From assembly GCA_016935525.1 (NCBI GenBank), contig JAFGQU010000013.1, positions 26,523 to 90,522 on the forward strand: a stretch of 64,000 nucleotides of DNA. Reading direction: 5' to 3'. Made by a program: the position numbers and the translations under genes. Origin of the DNA: Candidatus Omnitrophota bacterium. Lineage in GTDB: Bacteria > Omnitrophota > Gorgyraeia > Duberdicusellales > 4484-171. Of the stretch, positions 5,295 to 64,000 are shown piece after piece. The notes below the pieces were generated by a model, which saw only the letters and a list, made by a program, of their open reading frames with translations, was not told the origin of the DNA and did no database searches. Numbering within the stretch: position 1 is the first letter of the stretch; the number at the start of each line of letters is the position of its first letter.

Positions 5295-5813
5295 ATGAAT
5301 AAAATAGATAAAAATATATATCTTATAGGATTTATGGGTACGGGAAAGACTACCGTTGCCAAAATCCTTGCCGATGACCTTGGCCGTGAGTTTCGGGAGA
5401 CCGACGAAGAGATCGAGAAATCGGAGCAGAAAAAGATAAAAGATATCTTTGCCGAACACGGCGAGAAGTATTTCCGTCAAAAAGAAAAAGCGGTGCTTAA
5501 AAGGTTGTCTGGCGAGCGAGGGCTCATCGTCAGTTGCGGGGGCGGTGTCGTGATCGACCCGGAGAACCGCGATCTGCTTAAAGTTACGGGGACAGTGGTC
5601 TGTCTTACGGCAAGCCCCGAAACTATTTATCAACGGACAAAAGGGCTGGACGATAGGCCGCTTTTAAATGTTTCCGATCCTTTGGGAAAGATCAAAGAAC
5701 TGCTTGTTTCCCGGGATGAGTATTATCGGGAAACCGGTCATCTTATTATCGATACCGATTCGTTGAACCCGAAAGACGTGGCGGTGAGGATCAAAGAGGG
5801 CATACCTGAATGA
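5295..5813 (+). CDS. aroK: shikimate kinase
   Basis: Walker A motif FMGTGKTTV and shikimate kinase core (VVSCGGGVV...). 172 aa. Confidence 0.85.
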   Translation: MNKIDKNIYLIGFMGTGKTTVAKILADDLGREFRETDEEIEKSEQKKIKDIFAEHGEKYFRQKEKAVLKRLSGERGLIVSCGGGVVIDPENRDLLKVTGTVVCLTASPETIYQRTKGLDDRPLLNVSDPLGKIKELLVSRDEYYRETGHLIIDTDSLNPKDVAVRIKEGIPE

Positions 5814-6871
5814 AAGAGTTAGCTATTCTTTTCAATAAAGCCGGTGTTTCGTTTACGAAGTTTCAGGAGGTTGCCGCCGGGAATAGAGACCTCCTACGTA
5901 CGGTTCAAGACAAAGATGCTTGGGGTGAATTCCCTTTCCTTACCGAAAAAGAGCGTGAACGTCTAAAAGGTCTACAAAGACAGGATTTCGTAAAAAACGA
6001 ATTACAGCGGGCCCAAGAATCGAACGTACAGATCATCGATTTTTATTCTGAAGAATACCCTCAATTATTACGGGAAATCCCGCATCCGCCGGTCGTCCTT
6101 TATGTGCAGGGTTCGCCGGCGGTGATTTCGAAACTGTGTATCGGGATCGTGGGGACGAGGTTACCTACGTTTTACGGGATAGAGATGGCCAAGAAATTTT
6201 CTTACGCTCTGGCGTCGTTAGGATTAATTGTTGTTTCGGGGCTTGCCCGGGGTATCGATACTGCCGCGCATCTGGGGGCGCTTGCCGGCGGGGATACTAT
6301 TGCGGTACTGGGGTGCGGATTGAACTATCGGTATCCTAAAGAGAATGAGAGTCTTGCCGCGCGTATTTCTGAACGGGGTGCGGTGATTTCCGAATTTGCT
6401 CTTGAAGAAAGGCCCCGCCGGGAATATTTTCCCCGGCGTAACCGTATTATCAGCGGTGTGTCACGCGGTGTGCTTGTGGTCCAGGCGGCCGACCGAAGCG
6501 GGGCGTTGATCACCGCCCGGTACGCGCTGGAACAGAACCGGGAAGTATTTGCTCTGCCGGGGGATGTGAATTCTTCAAAAAGCCGGGGAACCAATAAGCT
6601 TATTAAACAAGGCGCGAAACTTGTCGATTCAGTAGAAGATATATTACAAGAGTTACCTTATGATTTTTCCCGGCCGGGAAATGCCTTATCGTTATCCGAT
6701 GAAGAGAAAGGCGTGTTTGATATCATCACCGAAGGAGGTATCAGTCTTGAGGAGATGCTCTTGCGGTATCAACTCAAACGCGATATTATCAATAAAGTAG
6801 TGTTATCGTTACAGATAAAAGGGCTGATCAAAGAGGCTAAACCTTTATATTATGTAAAAGCACAACTTTAA
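5810..6871 (+). CDS. dprA: DNA processing protein DprA (Smf)
   Basis: Rossmann-like DprA core GIVGTR...VVSGLARGIDTAAHLGAL...GRSGALITARYALEQNREVFALPG. Overlaps the aroK stop by 4 nt. Confidence 0.9.
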   Translation: MKELAILFNKAGVSFTKFQEVAAGNRDLLRTVQDKDAWGEFPFLTEKERERLKGLQRQDFVKNELQRAQESNVQIIDFYSEEYPQLLREIPHPPVVLYVQGSPAVISKLCIGIVGTRLPTFYGIEMAKKFSYALASLGLIVVSGLARGIDTAAHLGALAGGDTIAVLGCGLNYRYPKENESLAARISERGAVISEFALEERPRREYFPRRNRIISGVSRGVLVVQAADRSGALITARYALEQNREVFALPGDVNSSKSRGTNKLIKQGAKLVDSVEDILQELPYDFSRPGNALSLSDEEKGVFDIITEGGISLEEMLLRYQLKRDIINKVVLSLQIKGLIKEAKPLYYVKAQL

Positions 6872-6987
6872 GGGGATATGGCAATAAACCAGTCGATAGT
6901 CGACGGTCTATGGTCGATAGTATAGAAAAATAAAAACTAAATGCCAAAGACTAACGACCAACGACTCTATACGGAGCTTTTAAGAAG

Positions 6988-15982: not shown

Positions 15983-15993
15983 GAAATAGTTCG

Positions 15994-16076
15994 CGCGTTC
16001 ACCCGTGCTCGCGTTTCCCGCCACAGGCGGGATTCCCGTTCAAAAGAACGGGTACACGGGCGAACGGGAAAACGGG
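15994..16076. repeat. GC-rich nested palindromic element in the LPS cluster intergenic region
   Basis: Nested inverted repeats CGTTCACCCGTG/CACGGGCGAACG and GTTTCCCG/CGGGAAAAC around the hairpin CCCGTTC-AAAA-GAACGGG. Confidence 0.35.
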
Positions 16077-16098
16077 CTAACTCGACTATAGATTAAAT

Positions 16099-17924: not shown

Positions 17925-17930
17925 TGAAAA

Positions 17931-18100
17931 GTTACACGACACACGCCACACGCATGCCTGCTACGCAGGCCGTCACACGTTGCACGACACACGTCACATG
18001 TATTAATTCTTTCTCGACGTGTGACTATGTGACCTTGTGTCCTTGTGACTTGCCGAAGGCATACGTATGACGTGTGACCTTGTGACTATGTGACCTGCGT
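17931..18100. repeat. family-1 intergenic repeat element (GTCACA/TGTGAC octamer arrays), copy A
   Basis: Tandem NGTCACAN octamers followed by tandem NTGTGACN octamers, with embedded hairpins GCCTGCTACGCAGGC and TGCCGAAGGCA. Approximately the reverse complement of copy C at 44245-44408. Confidence 0.7.
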
Positions 18101-18103
18101 GTT

Positions 18104-21069: not shown

Positions 21070-21200
21070 TATCACTATTGTTAATATATACTTTTGAGTT
21101 TGTTTAAATAATTTTCAGAATAACCAATCACCAAACTGTCCAATTGATTTTACTTTATAAGGATGTCCGATTATTGAAATTTGATTATTGGTTATTGTTT

Positions 21201-21280
21201 CCCCCTAGGAATCGCCTTTCCCTTAGGCAGGCGATTCCAGGGACTCGGTCCCGGGAATTCTCCGAATTCCACGGGGGGGT
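21201..21280 (+). promoter_or_regulatory. structured 5' leader: three hairpins enclosed by a C5/G7 outer stem (4-way-junction-like), candidate metal-sensing riboswitch
   Basis: CCCCC...[GGAATCGCC-loop-GGCGATTCC][GGGAC-TCG-GTCCC][GGAATTC-TCC-GAATTCC]...GGGGGGG, immediately upstream of a Ni/Co transporter gene. Confidence 0.35.
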
Positions 21281-21302
21281 ATTGTTTCTTGGTTATTGGT
21301 GA

Positions 21303-26100: not shown

Positions 26101-26563
26101 TGTCCTTTCTGCGTTACGCCGGTATCCCGGCCACAATGTTTTTATTACCGTAGGGAACAGTTTACGGAGTGATGACGGTGTGGGGCCGTATATCTCATCG
26201 GTTCTGGAAAATCTCAAAGACCTGAGTGTGATCGCTGCCGGACAGAATCCCGAGAACGTGATCGATAAGGTGGCCGGGTTGCGTCCCGCCCGTATCCTTA
26301 TTATCGATGCGGCTGATTTCGGGAAGAACCCCGGTTATACCCAGATCGTGGACCGTGAACATATCCCCGAGACCAGTGTCAGTACGCATGCGATTTCATT
26401 GAAAGTCATCGCTCATCTTATAGAGGAAGATACCGGCGTGGCTGTGGAATTTCTGGGTATTCAGCCGCAATCGGTCGAGTTGAAAGAAGGGTTATCCCCG
26501 CAGGTAAAAGAGACTGCCGATGCGATTATCGCCGTAATCAGGAAGGAGTTTTCTCATGCATGA
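26078..26563 (+). CDS. hydrogenase maturation endopeptidase (HycI/HyaD family)
   Basis: FITVGNSLRSDDGVGPYI and IIDAADFG motifs. Start is uncertain: ATG 26078 or 26042, either overlapping the large-subunit gene. Confidence 0.7.
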   Translation: MSNSLTASVLSALRRYPGHNVFITVGNSLRSDDGVGPYISSVLENLKDLSVIAAGQNPENVIDKVAGLRPARILIIDAADFGKNPGYTQIVDREHIPETSVSTHAISLKVIAHLIEEDTGVAVEFLGIQPQSVELKEGLSPQVKETADAIIAVIRKEFSHA

Positions 26564-26798
26564 GATGCATTTGGTAAAAGACCTATTTGAAGATGTTTTA
26601 ACCCATGCTCGCAATAACCAGGCCGATAAGGTGACGAAAGTATACCTTAAAATGGGCGAGTTTACCGAGATCAATGAAGAGGTGCTCCGGTTCTTTTTCA
26701 AAGAAAAAGGGGCCCAGACAATATTAGAAGGTGCCGAATTAGTCATCGAAAAAAGCCCGGCCCGCGAATTACGGCTGGTATCGTTTGATTGCGAGTAA
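26556..26798 (+). CDS. hypA: HypA-like nickel-insertion protein, N-terminal fragment lacking the Zn-finger (possible pseudogene)
   Basis: Starts MHEMHL (HypA MHE Ni-binding N-terminus). Ends at ...ELVIEKSPARELRLVSFDCE*, exactly where the first CxxC of the Zn finger should begin. The stop codon abuts the family-2 repeat. Confidence 0.45.
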   Translation: MHEMHLVKDLFEDVLTHARNNQADKVTKVYLKMGEFTEINEEVLRFFFKEKGAQTILEGAELVIEKSPARELRLVSFDCE

Positions 26799-26893
26799 AG
26801 ATGCAGATGATCGCTGATTTTGGATTCACACAGATGATCGCTGATATTATATCTGTGGCAATCTGTGATTCTCTGAATCTGTGATCATCAGCG
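26799..26893. repeat. family-2 intergenic repeat cluster (CAGATGATCGCTGAT / ATCTGTGATCATCAG units), locus E1
   Basis: Two forward units (GCAGATGATCGCTGAT, CACAGATGATCGCTGAT) and three ATCTGTG units in the opposite orientation within 95 nt. Confidence 0.6.
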
Positions 26894-26912
26894 TGAAGGA
26901 GCGAAGCGACGA

Positions 26913-28211
26913 ATGTGTTATGCTATTCCCGGAAAAGTAAAACGGTTCCAAGATAAGTTTGTCATTGTCGATTATTTCGGCGAAGAACGCCGGGCGTATA
27001 ATGAGCTGGATGATCTCTCAATCGGAGACTATATTTACGCTCAGGGCGGTTACGCCATCCAAAAGATAGCATCGGATGAGGCCGAAAGTATATTGATGAC
27101 GTGGAAAGAGACTTTTTTTGAATTACAGGAAGTCGACCTCCAACTTTCCCGGATGGATCTTGAATCTAAAGACCTTTCGCTCCGAGTCGTCGGGCTGCTT
27201 GATAAAGTGAATCACGGGTTTTCTTTAAAAACCGACGAGTTGGAATACATCCTTGGCCTTGAAGATGAAAAAGAAAAAGAGTTTATATGTAAAAATGCGA
27301 ATTTTTTAAGGCAGAAATATCATAAGAACGCCTGTTGTGTGCATGGGATCATCGAGATATCCAACCGGTGCGCCCGGGATTGTCATTATTGCGGTATTTC
27401 TACGTTTAATAATAATCTTATCCGGTATCATATGGACGCGGATGAGATATTCGCGGTCGCTCAAAAAGCCGTCAAAGAATATAGTTTTAAAGCATTGGTC
27501 TTACAGAGCGGTGAAGAGTGCGGGTATAATACCCGTGAATTGGCGGGAGTGATCTCGAAAATCCGCCGTGAATTAGGCGCGTTGGTATTTATCAGTTTTG
27601 GCGAGATATCTCTTGAAGCTCTCGATCAGTATTATCAGGCCGGGGCCAGAGGGATATTGTTGCGGTTTGAGACGTCGAACGAAGGATTATATAACCGTCT
27701 TCATCCCGGAGGAGCATTGGCTAGGCGTATTGATTTGATCCGGGCGGCCGATAAGCGGGGCTATCTGGTCGCAACCGGCGGTCTCATCGGGTTGCCGGGG
27801 GCGACTGCGCATGATATCGTGAACGATGCTTTGTTAGCTAAAGAGCTGAACGCCGAGATGTATTCGTTCGGCCCGTTTATTCCATCGCACGATACGCCGC
27901 TTTCACAATCTTTTTCGGTCTCACCGGATTATATGCGGATGGTCATCGCCCTTATCCGGCTGGTCGATCCTGCGAAAGGGAAAATATTAGTGACTACGGC
28001 ATTTGAAACGTTAGACCCTTTAGCCAGGCGCCAGGGGCTGCTGTGCGGCGCGAATTCGGTTATGCTGAATGTGACTCCCCGCAGGTACCGTCAGCTTTAT
28101 TCGATTTATCCCGGACGGGCTCACCAGTCGCAGTCGATCCCTGAACAGATAGAAGAGACTATTGTATTACTCAAGTCTTTAGGCCGCGCGCCTACGGATC
28201 TGGGTATTTAA
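26913..28211 (+). CDS. hydE: fusion protein: HypC/HupF-like domain (N-terminal) joined to HydE-type radical-SAM maturase
   Basis: N-terminal MCYAIPGKV...VDYFGEERRAYNEL...GDYIYAQGGYAIQKI matches the HypC signature (MC-x-AIP, essential Cys2). From ~aa 95: EISNRCARDCHYCG (CxxxCxxC), YLVATGGLIGLPG, GANSVMLNVTPRRYRQLYSIYPGR match HydE. Confidence 0.7.
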   Translation: MCYAIPGKVKRFQDKFVIVDYFGEERRAYNELDDLSIGDYIYAQGGYAIQKIASDEAESILMTWKETFFELQEVDLQLSRMDLESKDLSLRVVGLLDKVNHGFSLKTDELEYILGLEDEKEKEFICKNANFLRQKYHKNACCVHGIIEISNRCARDCHYCGISTFNNNLIRYHMDADEIFAVAQKAVKEYSFKALVLQSGEECGYNTRELAGVISKIRRELGALVFISFGEISLEALDQYYQAGARGILLRFETSNEGLYNRLHPGGALARRIDLIRAADKRGYLVATGGLIGLPGATAHDIVNDALLAKELNAEMYSFGPFIPSHDTPLSQSFSVSPDYMRMVIALIRLVDPAKGKILVTTAFETLDPLARRQGLLCGANSVMLNVTPRRYRQLYSIYPGRAHQSQSIPEQIEETIVLLKSLGRAPTDLGI

Positions 28212-34470: not shown

Positions 34471-34558
34471 TTGTGGTCACACGACACACGTCACAAGGTC
34501 ACACGTAAAGAAAACAGGTGATTTACCTGTGACGTGTGACTATGTGACTTTGTGACCC
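34471..34558. repeat. family-1 repeat element, copy B
   Basis: GGTCACACGACACACGTCACAAGGTCACACG, a 22-nt spacer, then TGTGACGTGTGACTATGTGACTTTGTGACC. Confidence 0.7.
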
Positions 34559-44244: not shown

Positions 44245-44408
44245 TCACGTCACAAAGTCACATAGTCACAAGGTCACACGTGTGCCTTCGGCATGTCACA
44301 AGGACACATAGACACATGGTCACAAGTAAAGAGAAAAATACGTGTGACGTGTGTCGTGCAACGTGTGACAAGCCTGCTGGGTAGGCTTTCGTGTGTCGTG
44401 TGACTTAT
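44245..44408. repeat. family-1 repeat element, copy C (longest)
   Basis: CACGTCACAAAGTCACATAGTCACAAGGTCACACG - TGCCTTCGGCA - TGTCACAAGGACACATAGACACATGGTCACAAG ... GTGTGACGTGTGTCGTGCAACGTGTGAC - AAGCCTGCTGGGTAGGCTT - TCGTGTGTCGTGTGAC. Reverse complement of copy A. Confidence 0.7.
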
Positions 44409-44873: not shown

Positions 44874-46128
44874 AATTCTCAAAAATGTAGATCCCCAGGT
44901 ATATCAGAGTATCGTCCACGAGATCCATCGTCAGCGGGATCAGATCGAATTGATTGCCAGTGAAAATTTTGCGCCACTTGCGGTATTGGCGGCGGCGGCT
45001 TCTCCGCTTACCAATAAATACGCCGAAGGGTACCCCCGGGCCCGCTGGTACGGCGGATGTCAGTATATCGATCAGGCCGAAGACCTCGCCCGGGAACGTG
45101 TAATAAAACTTTTCGGTGCCGAACATGCTAATGTCCAGCCTCATTCGGGGACTCAGGCTAATATGGCGGTCCTTTTGGCGATGTTGGACGCAGGAGACAC
45201 GATCTTAGCTATGGATCTTGCCTGTGGCGGGCATCTTTCTCACGGCCATCCGATGAATTTCAGCGGGAAGTTCTATAATGTGGTTTCCTACGGAGTAGAC
45301 CGTAAGACCGAACAATTGGATTATAACGAAATCTCAGAGCTTGCCTCGACTCATAAACCGAAATTGATCATTGCCGGGGCAAGCGCCTATCCGCGGATCA
45401 TAGATTTTGCCAAGTTCCGGGCGATCGCCGATAAAGTAGGTGCCTATCTTCTGGTGGATATGGCCCACTTTGCCGGAATGGTCGCCGCCGGAATATATCC
45501 TAATCCCGTAGAATATGCCGAGTTTGTGACTTCGACTACTCATAAAACATTACGCGGACCCCGCGGTGGGTTCATCCTTTGTCAGAAAAAATTTGCCAAA
45601 AAAATCGACTCAGCCGTCTTTCCCGGGATCCAGGGCGGCCCGCTTATGCATATTATTGCCGCTAAAGCCGTAGGGTTCGGGCTTTCATTGAAAGATGAGT
45701 TTAAAGAGTATCAGAAAAAACTGGTGCGCAACGCGGCCTATTTCGCCGATGCCTTGAGTAAGAAAGATTTCCGCATTGTCTCAGGCGGTACCGATACGCA
45801 TCTGTTTTTAGTCGATGTGAGGGCAAAAGGATTGACCGGCAAAGAATGTGCTACCTTTTTAGAAGAGGTCAATATTACGGTGAATAAAAATCTTATCCCT
45901 TATGATCCCGAGCCGCCGCTGGTAACCAGCGGTATTCGTATTGGGACTCCGGCAATCACTACCCGGGGGATGGGGACTCTTGAGATGGAAATACTTGCCG
46001 AATGTATTGAGATGGCGGTATGCAATCGTAAAGATGCCGGAAAGATGGATCAGGTAAAGGAAAAAGTCGCGCAATTGGCGGAAAAGTTCCCGCTTTATCC
46101 GGAGATCAAAGACGCGGATGATCGCTGA
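44863..46128 (+). CDS. glyA: serine hydroxymethyltransferase
   Basis: [20 protein letters not shown] (PLP-Lys). RBS GAGGAG before ATG 44863, overlapping the rpiB stop. Last codons DADDR* lie inside a family-2 repeat unit. Confidence 0.9.
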
Positions 46129-46155
46129 TTTGAAGAAACACAGATGATCGCAGAT
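46114..46155. repeat. family-2 repeat units, locus E2
   Basis: GCGGATGATCGCTGAT and CACAGATGATCGCAGAT span the glyA stop and the probable comEB start region. Confidence 0.5.
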
Positions 46156-54688: not shown

Positions 54689-55622
54689 AAAATTGACAAA
54701 TAGCGACCTGGAAAAAATGGTCGAAACTTCCGACGACTGGATTACGACCCGGACCGGTATTAAAAAACGCCATATCGTAGAGAAGGGGATGTCGGCGTCG
54801 ACACTTGCTAAATATGCCGCCCGTCAGGCTTTAAAACGGGCCGGGATCAAATCTTCCGATCTTGATTTGATCATTGTCGCAACGATTACGCCCGATACTC
54901 AGTTTCCTTCTACCGCCTGTTATCTGCAGAACCATCTGCATGCCCGTCACGCGGCCTGTTTTGACGTGTCCGCGGCCTGCGCCGGGTTCGTGTATGCGCT
55001 TACCTGTGCCTGGCAATTCATCAGTACCGGGTTTTATAAAAACGCTCTTATTGTCGGAAGTGAAGTACTCTCTTCGATTACCGATTGGCAGGACCGTTCG
55101 ACCTGTGTGTTGTTCGGAGACGGGGCCGGGGCGGCAGTGCTTACTTCTACCAGCCGGGGCGGGATATTAAGCGCGTATCTCGGTTCGGATGGTTCTAAAG
55201 GTGATTTCCTTATTTTGCCCGGAGGCGGGTCACGGTTTCCGTCGTCACATGAGACTATCGACCAAGGGTTGCATCATATTAAGATGAAAGGGAATGAACT
55301 TTTTCGTATTGCGGTCAGGATCATGGTCCAGGCGGCAAAAAAAGCGTTAAAAAAAGCAAAAGTCCCGGTGCGAGATGTAAAAATGTTGATCCCTCATCAG
55401 GCTAATATAAGGATCATCAACGCGGTTACCAAAAGGTTAAAACTAACGCCCGAACAGGTCTATGTGAATATTGCCCGTTACGGGAATATGTCTTCGGCCT
55501 CCAGCGCGATTGCGCTTTGTGAAGCCTGGGAAGAAGAGAAGATCAGCCGCGGCGATGTTATCGTGCTTGACGCGTTCGGGGGGGGACTGGTATGGGGCAG
55601 TACGGTGATCCGGTGGATCTGA
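54642..55622 (+). CDS. fabH: 3-oxoacyl-ACP synthase III
   Basis: KIVGLGKYLP start, active-site Cys (AACAGFVYAL), His/Asn region. Overlaps plsX by 47 nt. Confidence 0.9.
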   Translation: MRSAKIVGLGKYLPPRKLTNSDLEKMVETSDDWITTRTGIKKRHIVEKGMSASTLAKYAARQALKRAGIKSSDLDLIIVATITPDTQFPSTACYLQNHLHARHAACFDVSAACAGFVYALTCAWQFISTGFYKNALIVGSEVLSSITDWQDRSTCVLFGDGAGAAVLTSTSRGGILSAYLGSDGSKGDFLILPGGGSRFPSSHETIDQGLHHIKMKGNELFRIAVRIMVQAAKKALKKAKVPVRDVKMLIPHQANIRIINAVTKRLKLTPEQVYVNIARYGNMSSASSAIALCEAWEEEKISRGDVIVLDAFGGGLVWGSTVIRWI

Positions 55623-55627
55623 CGTTC

Positions 55628-55720
55628 GCCGATGATCACAGAAGGAAAGACACAGATGATCACTGATGGAAATATCTGCGATAGTCTGTGTATATTCAAA
55701 ATCTGTGCTCATCTGTGCAT
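55628..55720. repeat. family-2 repeat cluster, locus E3
   Basis: GATGATCACAG, CACAGATGATCACTGAT, ATCTGCGAT, TCTGTGTAT, AATCTGTGCTCATCTGTGCAT between fabH and fabD. Confidence 0.55.
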
Positions 55721-55741
55721 GTCGAACGAAGTGAGGCAGAG

Positions 55742-56647
55742 ATGAATGCGATGATTTTTCCCGGACAGGGAGCTCAATATGCAGGGATGGGTAAGAGCCT
55801 TTATGATAGTTTTGAAAAAGCGCGGGGCGTATTTACCGCGATAGATGAAGTCCTTGGTTTTAAAATATCCGATATTTGTTTTGGCGGGTCTGAAGAAGAA
55901 TTGAAAAACACCCGGAATCAGCAGTTAGCTATTTTAACGGTCAGTCTTGCCGCATTTGAAGTGTTCAAGGATACCTCAGCTTTGGATATTACCTATTTTT
56001 CCGGGTTGAGTTTAGGAGAATACACCTGTCTTTATGCGGCCGGTGTCCTTGCCCTTTCTGAGGTCGCCCGGTTAGTCAACGTACGGGCCCAGGCTATGGA
56101 AGATGCGGCAAAGCTGAACCCTTCTACGATGCTTGCCGTAATCGGCTGGAATAGGGAACAACTGGTTGCCAAAGAGGGATTAGGGTTTTATGTCGCCAAC
56201 ATAAATGCTCTTACTCAGATCGCAGTCTCGGTAAGTGCCCAGAAGAAAGCGGAAGTAGCCGAGGCTTTGACTAAAGAGGGGGCAAAAGTAATAGAGTTAG
56301 CGGTAAGTGGGGGATTCCATTCTCCGTTTATGGCCCAGGCCAAAGCTCCGCTTGCCGAGATCATCGGATCACTTGATTTTCAGGACGCGAAGATCCCGAT
56401 TGTGAGCAATGTAACGGCCAAGGCGCATACCAATGCCGAGGAAATCAAACAGAACCTCGTTACCCAGATGGTATCTCCGGTCCTTTGGAACGGATGTGTA
56501 AATTTTATGGCTCAAACCGGGGTCGATACGTTTGTGGAAACCGGACCTTCCCGGGTATTGCGGGGATTAATGCGGAAAATCAACTCTCAGTTAAAAGTGA
56601 TAAATATTGAGAAGAAAGAAGATATTGAAAATCTCACTATTTCTTAA
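55742..56647 (+). CDS. fabD: malonyl CoA-ACP transacylase
   Basis: MIFPGQGAQY and GLSLGEY active-site Ser motif. ATG 55742 after the GAGGCAGAG RBS. Confidence 0.9.
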   Translation: MNAMIFPGQGAQYAGMGKSLYDSFEKARGVFTAIDEVLGFKISDICFGGSEEELKNTRNQQLAILTVSLAAFEVFKDTSALDITYFSGLSLGEYTCLYAAGVLALSEVARLVNVRAQAMEDAAKLNPSTMLAVIGWNREQLVAKEGLGFYVANINALTQIAVSVSAQKKAEVAEALTKEGAKVIELAVSGGFHSPFMAQAKAPLAEIIGSLDFQDAKIPIVSNVTAKAHTNAEEIKQNLVTQMVSPVLWNGCVNFMAQTGVDTFVETGPSRVLRGLMRKINSQLKVINIEKKEDIENLTIS

Positions 56648-56700
56648 TCTGTGATCATCAGTCCGGTCCGAAGGACCGTATCTGCGATTGTCTGCGTATA
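56646..56700. repeat. family-2 repeat units, locus E4
   Basis: AATCTGTGATCATCAG (identical to a unit at 26873-26888) and TATCTGCGATTGTCTGCGTAT, with internal hairpin GGTCCGAAGGACC. Confidence 0.5.
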
Positions 56701-57790: not shown

Positions 57791-57808
57791 CCTAGTTCTT
57801 TAACACAG

Positions 57809-59050
57809 ATGGAGCCGCGACGCGTAGTTATTACAGGGTGTGGTGTTGTCTCTCCGGTCGGAATAGGCACGCCAGGTTTCTGGAAGAGCCTTATCGCAGG
57901 GAAAAGCGGGGTTTCCCGGATCACCCAGTTCGATCCTTCCCATTTCGATTCAAAGATCGCCGGTGAAGTAGGCGATTTCGATCCTTCCCAATATCTCAAT
58001 TATAAAGAATTAAGAAGAACTCCCCGGTTTGTACAGTTTGCTATCGCTGCCAGTGATCAGGCGGTAAAAGACAGCGCTCTTCGTTTGGAAGAGATGGATC
58101 CTTACCGTATCGGAGTGATCATCGGTTCGGGTATAGGAAGCCTGCGTAGCGTGGAAGAAGAACACGGGAACTATTTGGCGAAAGGGCCGCGGCGGATATC
58201 CCCTTTTCTCATACCGATGTTGATCACTAACGAAGCTGCCGGAACGGTAGCGATCCGGTATCATCTTAAAGGAGTAAATTTCTGTACGGTCACCGCGTGT
58301 GCTTCAGGCGCCCATGCGATCGGTGAGGCGTACCGGCTTATCAAATATGACCATTCGGACGTGATCGTCTGCGGAGGGACCGAAAGTTGTATTACTCATC
58401 TGGGAGTGGGAGGGTTTTGTTCTTTAAAAGCGTTATCGACCCGTAATGATGAACCCGAAAGAGCCAGCCGGCCGTTTGACCGTACTCGTGACGGGTTTAT
58501 CATGGCTGAAGGGGCCGGGATCGTGGTCCTTGAGGAACTGAATTCGGCCCGCAGACGGGGCGCGAAGATCTATGGAGAACTGGGTGGATACGGGTCGACC
58601 TGTGATGCCTATCACATTACTGCGCCCGATCCCGAAGGTAAATCCGCGGCCCGGGCGATAGAAGATGCTTTAAAAGAAAGTAACATATCGTTAGAGCAGC
58701 CGATCTACATCAATGCGCATGGGACGTCGACCCAGTTGAATGATAAAATGGAAACTCAGGCGATAAAGACCGCTTTTGGAAATAAGACCGATAAGATCAT
58801 GGTGAGTTCTACCAAATCGATGATGGGACATACTCTGGGAGCCGCTGGCGCCATTGAGTTTATCGTGAGTTGTCTTGTATTACAGAATAAGATAATCCCT
58901 CCTACTATTAATTATGAAGAACCTGATCCTGAATGCGATTTAGATTATACCCCCAACCACGCTCGCGAAGTAGATGCGCAGGTAGCATTATCTAATTCTT
59001 TGGGGTTTGGCGGTCATAATGCTGCGTTACTGGTAAAAACGTATACATAA
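57809..59050 (+). CDS. fabF: 3-oxoacyl-ACP synthase II
   Basis: KAS I/II architecture with active-site Cys (VTACASGAHA) and two His regions. 413 aa. Confidence 0.9.
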   Translation: MEPRRVVITGCGVVSPVGIGTPGFWKSLIAGKSGVSRITQFDPSHFDSKIAGEVGDFDPSQYLNYKELRRTPRFVQFAIAASDQAVKDSALRLEEMDPYRIGVIIGSGIGSLRSVEEEHGNYLAKGPRRISPFLIPMLITNEAAGTVAIRYHLKGVNFCTVTACASGAHAIGEAYRLIKYDHSDVIVCGGTESCITHLGVGGFCSLKALSTRNDEPERASRPFDRTRDGFIMAEGAGIVVLEELNSARRRGAKIYGELGGYGSTCDAYHITAPDPEGKSAARAIEDALKESNISLEQPIYINAHGTSTQLNDKMETQAIKTAFGNKTDKIMVSSTKSMMGHTLGAAGAIEFIVSCLVLQNKIIPPTINYEEPDPECDLDYTPNHAREVDAQVALSNSLGFGGHNAALLVKTYT

Positions 59051-60334: not shown

Positions 60335-60403
60335 CGCGAAACGAGTAACGCGTACCGCGAAAAAGACACGAAGTACGAACGACTCACGACGAACGACGAG
60401 ATT

Positions 60404-63294: not shown

Positions 63295-63380
63295 GGTCAC
63301 ACGACACATAGACACACGTCACATGTTTTTGCTTTCTGGTTTTTACGTGTGACTCTGTGACCATGTGACTTTGTGACTAT
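63295..63380. repeat. family-1 repeat element, copy D (intergenic part)
   Basis: GGTCACACGACACATAGACACACGTCACATG, a T-rich spacer, then ACGTGTGACTCTGTGACCATGTGACTTTGTGACT, immediately before the truA ATG. Confidence 0.65.
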
Positions 63381-63384
63381 CTAC

Positions 63385-64000
63385 ATGAAGAACATACTAT
63401 TAAGATTGGAATATGACGGAAGTGATTATTTTGGATGGCAGATCCAGTCCGAAAAAAAGTCACACGGCACACGACATACGACACACGTGAAGAGCGAAAA
63501 AGCCAAAACAGTGCAGGGTGAGGTGGAAAAGGCGATAGAAAAGCTTTTTCGTCAAAAGGTAAAGTTGATCTATGCCGGCCGGACCGATCGCGGCGTACAT
63601 GCCAAAGATCAAGTCTTGAATTTTTTCGTCGATACCACCATCCCTATTGCCAATATAAAAGGCGCGCTGAATAGTTTTTTACCCGGAGATATCCGCGTGA
63701 AACGGGTAAAGAAAGTATCTGATGATTTCCATGCCCGGTTCAGCGTTTCAACGAAGATATACCGGTACCGTATCCTTAACGTAAAAGAACCTTCGGTGTT
63801 TGAACGTACTCGTTCCTGGTGGGTGCCCGATCCACTCGATCTTAAAGTTATGCAGTCGGTCGCCAAAAAGCTTATCGGATATAAAGACCGTAGCCTTTTT
63901 GCGAAACAGCCGGACCTTTATCATGACTGCCGCCGAAGGATCTTTGCCATACATATTAAGAAAAAAAGTCCGTTTGTTATTATCGATATTGAAGCTGACG
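63385..64000 (+). CDS. truA: tRNA pseudouridine(38-40) synthase TruA (3' end outside the window), with an in-frame repeat-derived insertion
   Basis: MKNILLRLEYDGSDYFGWQIQ...YAGRTDRGVHA (catalytic Asp)...FHARFS...YRYRI. No stop before position 64000. Codons 63459-63489 (SHGTRHTTHV) are a family-1 repeat arm. Confidence 0.85.
   Translation, partial: MKNILLRLEYDGSDYFGWQIQSEKKSHGTRHTTHVKSEKAKTVQGEVEKAIEKLFRQKVKLIYAGRTDRGVHAKDQVLNFFVDTTIPIANIKGALNSFLPGDIRVKRVKKVSDDFHARFSVSTKIYRYRILNVKEPSVFERTRSWWVPDPLDLKVMQSVAKKLIGYKDRSLFAKQPDLYHDCRRRIFAIHIKKKSPFVIIDIEAD
63459..63489. repeat. family-1 repeat arm embedded in-frame inside truA
   Basis: GTCACACGGCACACGACATACGACACACGTG, heptad CACACG-type units identical in style to the left arms of copies A-D. 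Flanked by the imperfect direct repeat CGAAAAAAAG / CGAAAAAGCC. Confidence 0.6.

Follow-up and report, generated by a model that had tools for sequence, protein, structure and literature searches.

The repeat clusters described here lie in four intergenic spacers of a 64,000 nt stretch of DNA (the window) on contig JAFGQU010000013.1 of a Candidatus Omnitrophota bacterium. Their closest described counterparts are REPINs (hairpins made of repetitive extragenic palindromic, REP, sequences), heptamer repeats and the intervening sequences (IVSs) of 23S rRNA. Other small palindromic insertions are also known; Rickettsia palindromic elements insert in frame into genes, and IVSs that lack an open reading frame (ORF) are about 100 nt long. 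A REP unit has been defined as a 20-40-nt imperfect palindrome with a GTAG or CGTC tag (PMC3733652), and the genes of REP-associated tyrosine transposases (RAYTs) are typically flanked by their REPINs, each RAYT being tied to one REPIN type (PMC3337134). Heptamer repeats are over-represented in bacteria without an explanation (PMC4692102). The 23S IVS of Coxiella has terminal inverted repeats around an S23p ORF and two to three tandem GACAGAT heptamers, in strain-dependent copy number, before the S23p ATG; RNase III cuts its stem at the first repeat. This IVS is regarded as a selfish insertion, and its origin has been called unclear (PMC4990558).

We explain the clusters of the window, with a probability of about 0.6, as gene-less copies (two complete, two half) of a dispersed palindromic insertion element that is related to a GxxExxY gene cassette and resides in transcribed spacers. 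A first-pass annotation of the window had noticed repeat clusters at these four intergenic loci, and the clusters are real. The sequence CAGATGATCGCTGAT, with up to three mismatches, has 12 matches in the window against 1.67 expected (about 7-fold), a number that none of 100 shuffles reached, and 10 of the 12 fall within the four spacers. Intergenic DNA makes up 4.8% of the window, yet it holds 8 of the 19 occurrences of CRCWGAT (binomial P ~1e-6) and 9 of the 31 occurrences of ATCWGYG (P ~1e-5). All long ORFs of the 64 kb are on the + strand, and Pfam confirms the flanking genes as they had been named: HypA / HypC-radical-SAM, SHMT / dCMP deaminase and FabH / FabD / FabG. No rRNA gene was found in the window, and all four loci are located between protein-coding genes. 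The loci, together with one single unit, are as follows.

26801 to 26893, no strand assigned: hairpin in the hypA / hypC-radical-SAM spacer, from sequence and fold; 5' doublets CAGATgatCGCTGAT (26804-26818) and CACAGATgatCGCTGAT (26829-26845), loop attat, 3' units ATCTGTG (26851), ATCTGTG (26861) and ATCTGTGatcATCAGCG (26877-26893).
46115 to 46155, + strand: 5'-type half-array in the glyA / comEB spacer, CGGATgatCGCTGAT, then ttgaagaaa, then CACAGATgatCGCAGAT.
55628 to 55720, no strand assigned: hairpin in the fabH / fabD spacer, from sequence and fold; degenerate outer 5' doublet CGATGATCACAGAa, inner 5' doublet CACAGATgatCACTGAT (55651-55667), 3' units ATCTGCGatagTCTGTG and ATCTGTGctcATCTGTG (55701-55717).
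56646 to 56696, + strand: 3'-type half-array in the fabD / fabG spacer, AATCTGTGatcATCAG, a GC hairpin GGTCCgaaGGACC, and ATCTGCGattGTCTGCG.
57804 to 57810, + strand: lone CACAGAT in the acpP / fabF spacer, a single unit from a regular-expression census; its membership of the family is doubtful and it may be there by chance.

Each unit consists of two direct copies of the heptamer CRCWGAT, in the form CACAGAT-N3-CRCWGAT, with a 10-nt period. In all sequence compared, successive heptamers are 10 nt apart in 223 cases and 9 nt apart in 60. The N3 spacer is variable (TAG, GAA, GAG, AAT and others), and GAT occupies it in less than half of cases even though the probe of our cross-genome scan, ACAGATGATCRCWGAT, itself contains GAT. 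The unit had been read as a GATC-centred pseudo-palindrome for a dimeric protein, with methylation of GATC as a possible clue; neither idea survives, because the spacer that forms GATC varies and because GATC is over-represented 2.4-fold throughout the window (587 against ~245 expected from base composition; TGATCA occurs 51 times). A protein binding site in another form is still supported, since the heptamers are far better conserved than pairing requires. The identical unit reported at two loci exists as a shared 16-mer, AATCTGTGATCATCAG, although its positions are 26876 and 56646 and not 26873.

In a complete copy two 5' doublets are opposed by two reverse-complement 3' doublets (ATCTGYG-N3-ATCTGTG) with a short loop between them. 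The first-pass annotation had overlooked the family's connection with a gene, and also that its clusters of units in both orientations are two opposed arrays, which form a hairpin. Both orientations are found at two of the loci, 26801-26893 and 55628-55720, which are imperfect hairpins of about 95 nt; the other two, reported as 46114-46155 and 56646-56700, are half-arrays with 5'-type and 3'-type units only. The predicted fold of 26795-26900 has -38.8 kcal/mol (z -3.6, + strand) and that of 55620-55725 has -41.7 kcal/mol (z -5.1). Both hairpins start right after stop codons and end about 20 nt before start codons. The half-array at 46115-46155 gives no significant fold (z +0.4) and ends immediately 5' of the start region of the comEB-like dCMP-deaminase gene, 3' of which no 3'-type units were found; its layout is the same as that of the 5' flank of GxxExxY cassettes. 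The half-array at 56646-56696 forms no long hairpin and has no significant fold. The first doublet of the half-array at 46115-46155 contains the glyA stop TGA (46126-46128) as part of CGCTGAT, and the fabD stop TAA (56645-56647) abuts the first unit AATCTGTG; host genes frequently end in or against the first repeat unit in this way. No terminator-like site (GC-rich stem plus U tract) on the + strand and no promoter features were seen at the loci. A search of the window and ten related loci against Rfam gave no match at gathering score, and in E-value mode the main locus gave chance matches to small nucleolar RNAs and microRNAs only (E 0.7-2.4).

The family is not restricted to the window. We scanned 596 Gb of sequence, one genome per species, with this probe, ACAGATGATCRCWGAT. 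About 1,100 chance matches were expected, and the figures that follow are those among the 119 matches listed, so that true totals are at least as high. The scan found at least 23 stretches from 17 Omnitrophota metagenome-assembled genomes, 13 of them with full gene-less hairpins and several with multiple copies. The median number of core heptamers around a match was 5 in Omnitrophota and 2 elsewhere. Aligned copies form a conserved element of about 95 nt at unrelated loci in different species, which supports the earlier preference for a REP-like, selfish or structural element over a regulon, as does the absence of the element from the corresponding spacers of distant relatives. Full arrays were also found at single loci in Nitrospirota, Planctomycetota, Opitutaceae (Verrucomicrobiota), Chlamydiae (Chlamydiota), Bacteroides and Mucilaginibacter (Bacteroidota), Pyrinomonadaceae (Acidobacteriota), Thiodictyon and other Proteobacteria, giving the family a range of about ten phyla besides Omnitrophota. 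Placement relative to tandem and convergent gene pairs, which had been proposed as informative, is strongly skewed: gene-less hairpins lie between co-directional genes in 20 cases, between convergent genes in 3 and between divergent genes in none. Loci not picked for the gene hold 29 gene-less copies and 2 gene-bearing ones. Viral contigs gave 120 matches, all of them single and none with array context; these double as a negative control, and an origin from phages was rejected on the same evidence.

The connection to a gene was found at loci from other genomes and metagenomes that we compared with the window (L-numbers). In L114 (Omnitrophota), L049 (Zixibacteria) and L017, arrays about 360 nt apart enclose a GxxExxY protein of about 125 aa, which belongs to TIGR04256 (E 6e-32) and to PF13366 (PDDEXK_3), of the PD-(D/E)XK type. 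The ATG of the gene in these three cassettes is provided by the 5' units, and its stop codon overlaps with the 3' units. In a survey of 80 metagenomic GxxExxY loci (35-85% identity), 72 of which had both flanks, the 7-mers of the 5' flank that recur in the reverse-complemented 3' flank were counted, with windows displaced by 400 nt as controls. At least three 7-mers were shared in 60 of the 72, as in inverted phased arrays, with a median of 9.5 against 1 in the controls. The GxxExxY gene has the same orientation as both neighbours at 30 loci and is opposite to both at 3. The catalytic D...ExK residues are invariant among the GxxExxY proteins. PDDEXK_3 has been listed as a family of unknown function with many transfers (PMC3424549). 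A sequence search of the PDB was empty, and a Foldseek search of the PDB with an AlphaFold2 model (pLDDT 78.6) gave no match below E 0.1.

Unit types differ by subclade of the protein and include CACAGAT, CGCTGAT, CGCGAAT, CACGAAT, CACGGAT, ACGAAT, CGCAAAT and GACAGGAT. The subclade of Omnitrophota and Nitrospirota is uniformly of the CACAGAT type, with the window-like variants CGCTGAT and GATCATCAG (L144). Close homologues (72-92% identity) occur in both phyla, with about 80% identity between the two, and their cassettes are co-directional in operon spacers, radical-SAM/hemE in Nitrospirota and acpP/fabZ in Omnitrophota, and are flanked 5' by CACAGAT arrays and 3' by ATCTGTG arrays. The radical-SAM/hemE junction of Nitrospirota holds both forms of the element: L015 has a gene-less hairpin, and L122, L125, L138, L141 and L142 are gene-bearing. 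The 5' arm of L015 is colinear with the 5' flank of L141, both having CGCAGATtagCACAGA, an A-rich spacer and CGCAGATgaNCACAGA.

Several further features were seen around the cassettes. The radical-SAM genes upstream in Nitrospirota (L122, L125 and L015) read into the array, and arrays supply ATG codons that gene callers take as false starts (MIADG..., MHTDD..., MNTDE...). About eight ATCTGTGATCATCTGTGATAT units lie downstream of one GxxExxY gene (L135 565-640) and seven 5' units upstream of another (L147 1380-1500), array expansions that indicate a probable slippage-type change in copy number. The L114 locus, which also holds three elements of the present family, has a cyclic di-GMP-I riboswitch at 6773-6869 (54 bits, gathering score 35).

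Comparison with orthologous spacers bears on the history of the window copies. Four Omnitrophota with FabD 61-63% identical have a fabH/fabD spacer of 4-22 nt, and their fabD and fabG overlap or are 12 nt apart; the hypA/hypC spacer is 7-13 nt in relatives at 63-65% identity. Closer relatives have the hairpins. L340, with an adjacent protein 78% identical, has a hypA/hypC hairpin that is 89.5% identical over 86 nt, against 36-40% at the 4-fold degenerate sites of the flanking genes, which served as the synonymous yardstick; the window has one extra 27-nt doublet. In L343 (FabD 72% identical) the identity of the fabH/fabD hairpin is 78% over 116 nt, and that of 4-fold sites 40%. No arrays were found in the 16-nt fabD/fabG spacer of L343, and four other relatives likewise lack them between fabD and fabG. 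From the short spacers of the distant relatives and the high identity of the hairpins in L340 and L343, we conclude that the window copies are lineage-specific insertions and that constraint, or homogenisation by concerted evolution, has since preserved them. Conservation is unevenly distributed within the hairpins, with column identities to the orthologues of 92% in the heptamers, 65% in other parts of the hairpin and 89% in the part proximal to the ribosome-binding site (P 3.5e-5). The heptamers themselves are constrained, as would be expected from a further, sequence-specific partner or from concerted evolution in the repeat population. The 87-nt fabH/fabD spacer of L214 holds a different array hairpin (ATTGTYA... 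/ ...AACAAT, 2414-2500); in L214 and in the window, different unit families have colonised the same spacers independently. L214 has another array hairpin (AAATCCTAA / TTAGGATTT) at 5658-5853, between fabF and an aconitase-family gene.

The HypA protein next to the first hairpin (26556-26798) has 80 aa and matches positions 1-70 of the 112-position Pfam model. We considered whether the insertion had truncated it and rejected this, as HypA has 80 aa in all sampled relatives. On the other side, HypC is fused to a radical-SAM protein annotated as HydE (26913-28211), and this fusion is found throughout Omnitrophota (L340-L342).

These observations can be combined into a putative life history of the element. 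Its ends are phased CACAGAT-type heptamer arrays (7 nt plus a spacer of about 3 nt) that are mutually inverted, and its gene-bearing form carries the GxxExxY gene between them, lying in operon spacers of Omnitrophota, Nitrospirota and further phyla in the direction of the neighbouring genes. Copies entered the hypA/hypC, fabH/fabD, fabD/fabG and glyA/comEB spacers and were then retained. There, we infer, they are transcribed inside polycistronic mRNAs. Complete copies are predicted to fold into imperfect stems of about 40 bp, so that the insert would be looped out after the upstream stop codon and before the ribosome-binding site of the next gene. Judging from the Coxiella IVS, such stems are likely to be substrates of RNase III; the window itself contains no RNase III gene. 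The element probably acts as a double-stranded RNA stem, as a heptamer array recognised by a protein, or as both. The comparisons above show the anatomy of the copies, their membership of the family, its connection to GxxExxY cassettes, the polarity of insertion and the conservation at orthologous sites; RNA processing, any host benefit and the mode of spread are inferences.

Several observations weigh against this explanation, most of them against its RNA side. There is no GxxExxY gene in the window, and no target-site duplication is visible when the window insertions are compared with empty orthologous spacers. The window hairpins pair imperfectly, T.T and A.A mismatches being systematic. 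Across aligned copies the stem pairs do not vary and lend no support from covariation, which also makes the covariation test uninformative; between heptamers that pair, purines and pyrimidines covary only modestly (odds ratio 2.9, P 0.005). The outer 3' doublet of L340 is unpaired and nevertheless conserved, suggesting that sequence and not pairing is kept. A sense-strand G.U bias holds for the two window hairpins, but neither for the other families of the window, which are not more stable on the + strand, nor for the oriented cassettes: the cassettes show no excess of G.U over A.C (12 versus 11), and their duplex energies favour the sense strand weakly (48 versus 28, Wilcoxon P 0.145). Such a bias was therefore abandoned as a proof of function at the RNA level. 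Taken together, the missing G.U excess, the weak sense-strand advantage, the lack of a + strand advantage in other families, the invariant pairs and the conserved unpaired doublet favour recognition of the heptamers by a protein, or concerted evolution, and keep a REPIN-like alternative at the DNA level in play. The nature of the cargo is a further difficulty. Two unrelated families, GxxExxY and S23p, occur as cargo, and CACAGAT arrays also flank GxxExxY proteins that are just 35% identical to one another, both of which argue against the cargo simply being the transposase.

The S23p genes lead to the IVSs. In all five loci examined, one of them in Omnitrophota, S23p-type genes outside rRNA, which encode four-helix-bundle proteins, are flanked by phased arrays of other unit types (TAGGCA, GAATGTATAAT, AAATCAAA and AGGATTA). 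The genes are located as follows, and in the first two loci the S23p cassette adjoins a GxxExxY cassette.

L148, 377 to 813: S23p / four-helix-bundle gene outside rRNA.
L150, 162 to 539: S23p / four-helix-bundle gene outside rRNA.
L168, 1 to 453: S23p / four-helix-bundle gene outside rRNA.
L019, 6562 to 6978: S23p / four-helix-bundle gene outside rRNA.
L156, 2991 to 3353: S23p / four-helix-bundle gene outside rRNA.

A small GIY-YIG nuclease ORF in an Omnitrophota locus (L112 2030-2313) is flanked by a plain 13-bp inverted repeat, ATCCCGCCCTTCC / GGAAGGGCGGGAT, and may represent a third type of small cargo within a palindromic frame.

The window hairpins resemble IVSs in several respects. In both, inverted repeats at the ends pair into a long stem with a small ORF or nothing in between, as seen in the window hairpins and in the complementary flanks of their gene-bearing relatives, and ORF-less IVSs have the size of the window hairpins. 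The Coxiella heptamer GACAGAT is one base off CACAGAT, and in both systems the arrays stand beside the start of the ORF, CACAGAT overlapping the ATG of GxxExxY. They differ in that the window copies lie in spacers of protein operons and not in helix 25 or 45 of 23S rRNA, in that the cargo of the present family is GxxExxY and not S23p, the window copies being without an ORF, and in the period, which is 10 nt (7+3) here, whereas tandem heptamers have been described in Coxiella. More tentatively, the elements may be extended to a pan-bacterial class of tiny palindromic elements with inverted arrays of phased heptamers, which would carry GxxExxY or S23p as cargo, with REPIN-like gene-less members and with the 23S IVSs as members resident in rRNA. 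The heptamers would be recognised by the element's own protein, which would copy or maintain the gene-less hairpins, in the manner of RAYTs but on a different enzyme. We put this wider proposal forward as a tentative possibility and not as an expectation.

Of the alternatives, the one that survives best is a system that works like REPINs and RAYTs at the DNA level, in which the GxxExxY nuclease would act in trans, cutting or binding the arrays (as duplex, single strand or cruciform) and copying or maintaining the hairpins, with RNA folding being incidental. The likeness to REPINs is considerable. The window hairpins and their relatives are dispersed extragenic repeats with inverted doublets and hairpins of about 100 nt; they prefer co-directional or convergent spacers and show long vertical retention, and a small gene is flanked by the repeats, the gene lineage being partly specific for the repeat type (PMC3337134, PMC3116915). 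Unit type thus partly tracks the GxxExxY subclade (cluster 14 all CACAGAT, cluster 13 CGCTGAT, clusters 1-2 ACGAAT), and the gene is flanked by its own inverted repeats as RAYTs are by REPINs. Furthermore, the heptamers are better conserved than the spacers or the pairing, the catalytic residues of GxxExxY are conserved, gene-less copies are in large excess, a sense-strand G.U bias is lacking, and the ~80% identity of GxxExxY between Omnitrophota and Nitrospirota suggests horizontal spread. This last point is also a difference, as RAYTs are mostly vertical whereas the array family crosses phyla. In the four window loci the unit is a direct heptamer doublet, and inspection of its ends revealed neither GTAG nor CGTC; the protein flanked by the repeats is of the PD-(D/E)XK type (PF13366/TIGR04256) and not an HUH Y1 transposase. 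Against a purely DNA-level system stand the S23p genes, which encode no nucleases and yet lie in the same kind of array frame, the CACAGAT arrays around GxxExxY proteins only 35% identical, the strong co-orientation with host transcription, unexpected for a DNA transposon, and the structure search, which gave no neighbour hinting at an activity; a target-site duplication or other footprint of transposition was not seen. We consider such a system rather unlikely.

It may also be argued that the hairpins are regulatory RNA structures evolved by the host, which arose in place as intercistronic stabilisers or processing sites and have no mobile ancestry. Their strong conservation at orthologous spacers, their position right after stop codons and about 20 nt before starts, and the lack of terminator or promoter features are consistent with this. 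It is nevertheless improbable: the 95-nt sequence is found again at unrelated loci and in further phyla, a selfish-looking gene is linked to it, relatives lack it in the same spacers, and the fabH/fabD spacer of L214 has a different repeat family.

Neutral debris, either simple-sequence arrays made by slippage or decaying insertion scars with no activity, would account for the half-arrays, for the degenerate outer 5' doublet at 55631 and for the variation in unit number, such as the 27-nt doublet indel between the window and L340, the eight units of L135 and the two to three units among Coxiella strains. Opposed arrays are not created by slippage, however, and hairpins 78-90% identical to their orthologues where 4-fold sites are saturated at ~40% make debris very improbable. 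A regulon of transcription-factor operators or Dam-related GATC sites for hyp, glyA/comEB and fab genes, to which the conserved short motif at helical 10-bp phasing and the constraint on the heptamers might have pointed, is scarcely credible, given that the sites lie inside operons and not at promoters, with none between divergent genes, that GATC is no conserved part of the unit and is over-represented across the window, that the same arrays flank GxxExxY genes in other phyla, and that relatives with the same genes lack the motif in the orthologous spacers.

The insertion element that we propose also shares features with repeats of other kinds. Cyanobacterial short tandemly repeated repetitive (STRR) sequences and the heptamer repeats of Xanthomonas (GGGAATC) and Nostoc (GGGGAYT) are likewise intergenic heptamer arrays with several families per genome, lengths that differ between close relatives and an unexplained function; they have been described as head-to-tail repeats with period 7, and neither opposed hairpin arrays nor a flanking of GxxExxY or S23p genes was reported in the literature searched (PMC4692102). 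Rickettsia palindromic elements, miniature inverted-repeat transposable elements (MITEs) and integron attC sites are also small non-coding palindromic insertions, attC hairpins separating small co-oriented ORFs, but the window elements have no sequence similarity to any of them. Inspection of the four loci revealed no RYYYAAC/GTTRRRY core sites, and there is no adjacent integrase. With regard to MITEs, inverted ends and a gene-bearing relative are present; no duplication is visible against empty spacers, and the gene is no known transposase.

The window contains further arrays with short units. At least six unit families are present in the 64 kb, with no GxxExxY or S23p gene among them in the window. 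One is a second hairpin family, with GTCACA/CACACGA on the 5' side, TGTGAC on the 3' side and a period of about 8 nt, the hairpins of which have z-scores of -2.8 to -5.1 on both strands with no advantage of the + strand. The units of the other arrays are GTCGAT/GACCAACGAC, CCCGTT/AACGGG and CCAATCACC/GGTTATTGG, and there is a half-array of ACGAA type.

17925 to 18103, 34471 to 34551, 44245 to 44390 and 63295 to 63395: second hairpin family.
6872 to 6987, 15983 to 16098, 21070 to 21302 and 60335 to 60403: other short-unit arrays.

The truA gene, which starts at 63385, has a family-1 half-array, GTCACACGGCACACGACATACGACACACGTG, in frame at 63458-63490. The insertion contributes roughly 'KSHGTRHTTHVK' to the pseudouridine synthase, between its conserved motifs GWQ.Q and TVQ, and resembles the in-frame insertions of Rickettsia palindromic elements.

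On the surface, the family is an ordinary REP-like intergenic repeat. In the literature searched, we found no account of arrays around GxxExxY genes or around S23p genes outside rRNA, nor of the gene-less hairpins, and the underlying link between the repeat family and GxxExxY genes appears to be undescribed. In practical terms, the hairpins break metagenome assemblies, and the start and stop codons that they supply mislead gene callers. If the proposed relationships are true, the origin of 23S rRNA intervening sequences would be tied together with heptamer-array elements, and the CACAGAT arrays would be concrete substrates on which to test a nuclease of unknown function. This would bear on the function of GxxExxY/TIGR04256 and S23p/TIGR02436, two very large hypothetical families, and on the excess, so far without explanation, of heptamer repeats in the intergenic DNA of bacteria. 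It would also bear on the dense repeat content of Omnitrophota operon spacers, where the family would represent a second, independent REPIN-like repeat population that has been retained over long periods.

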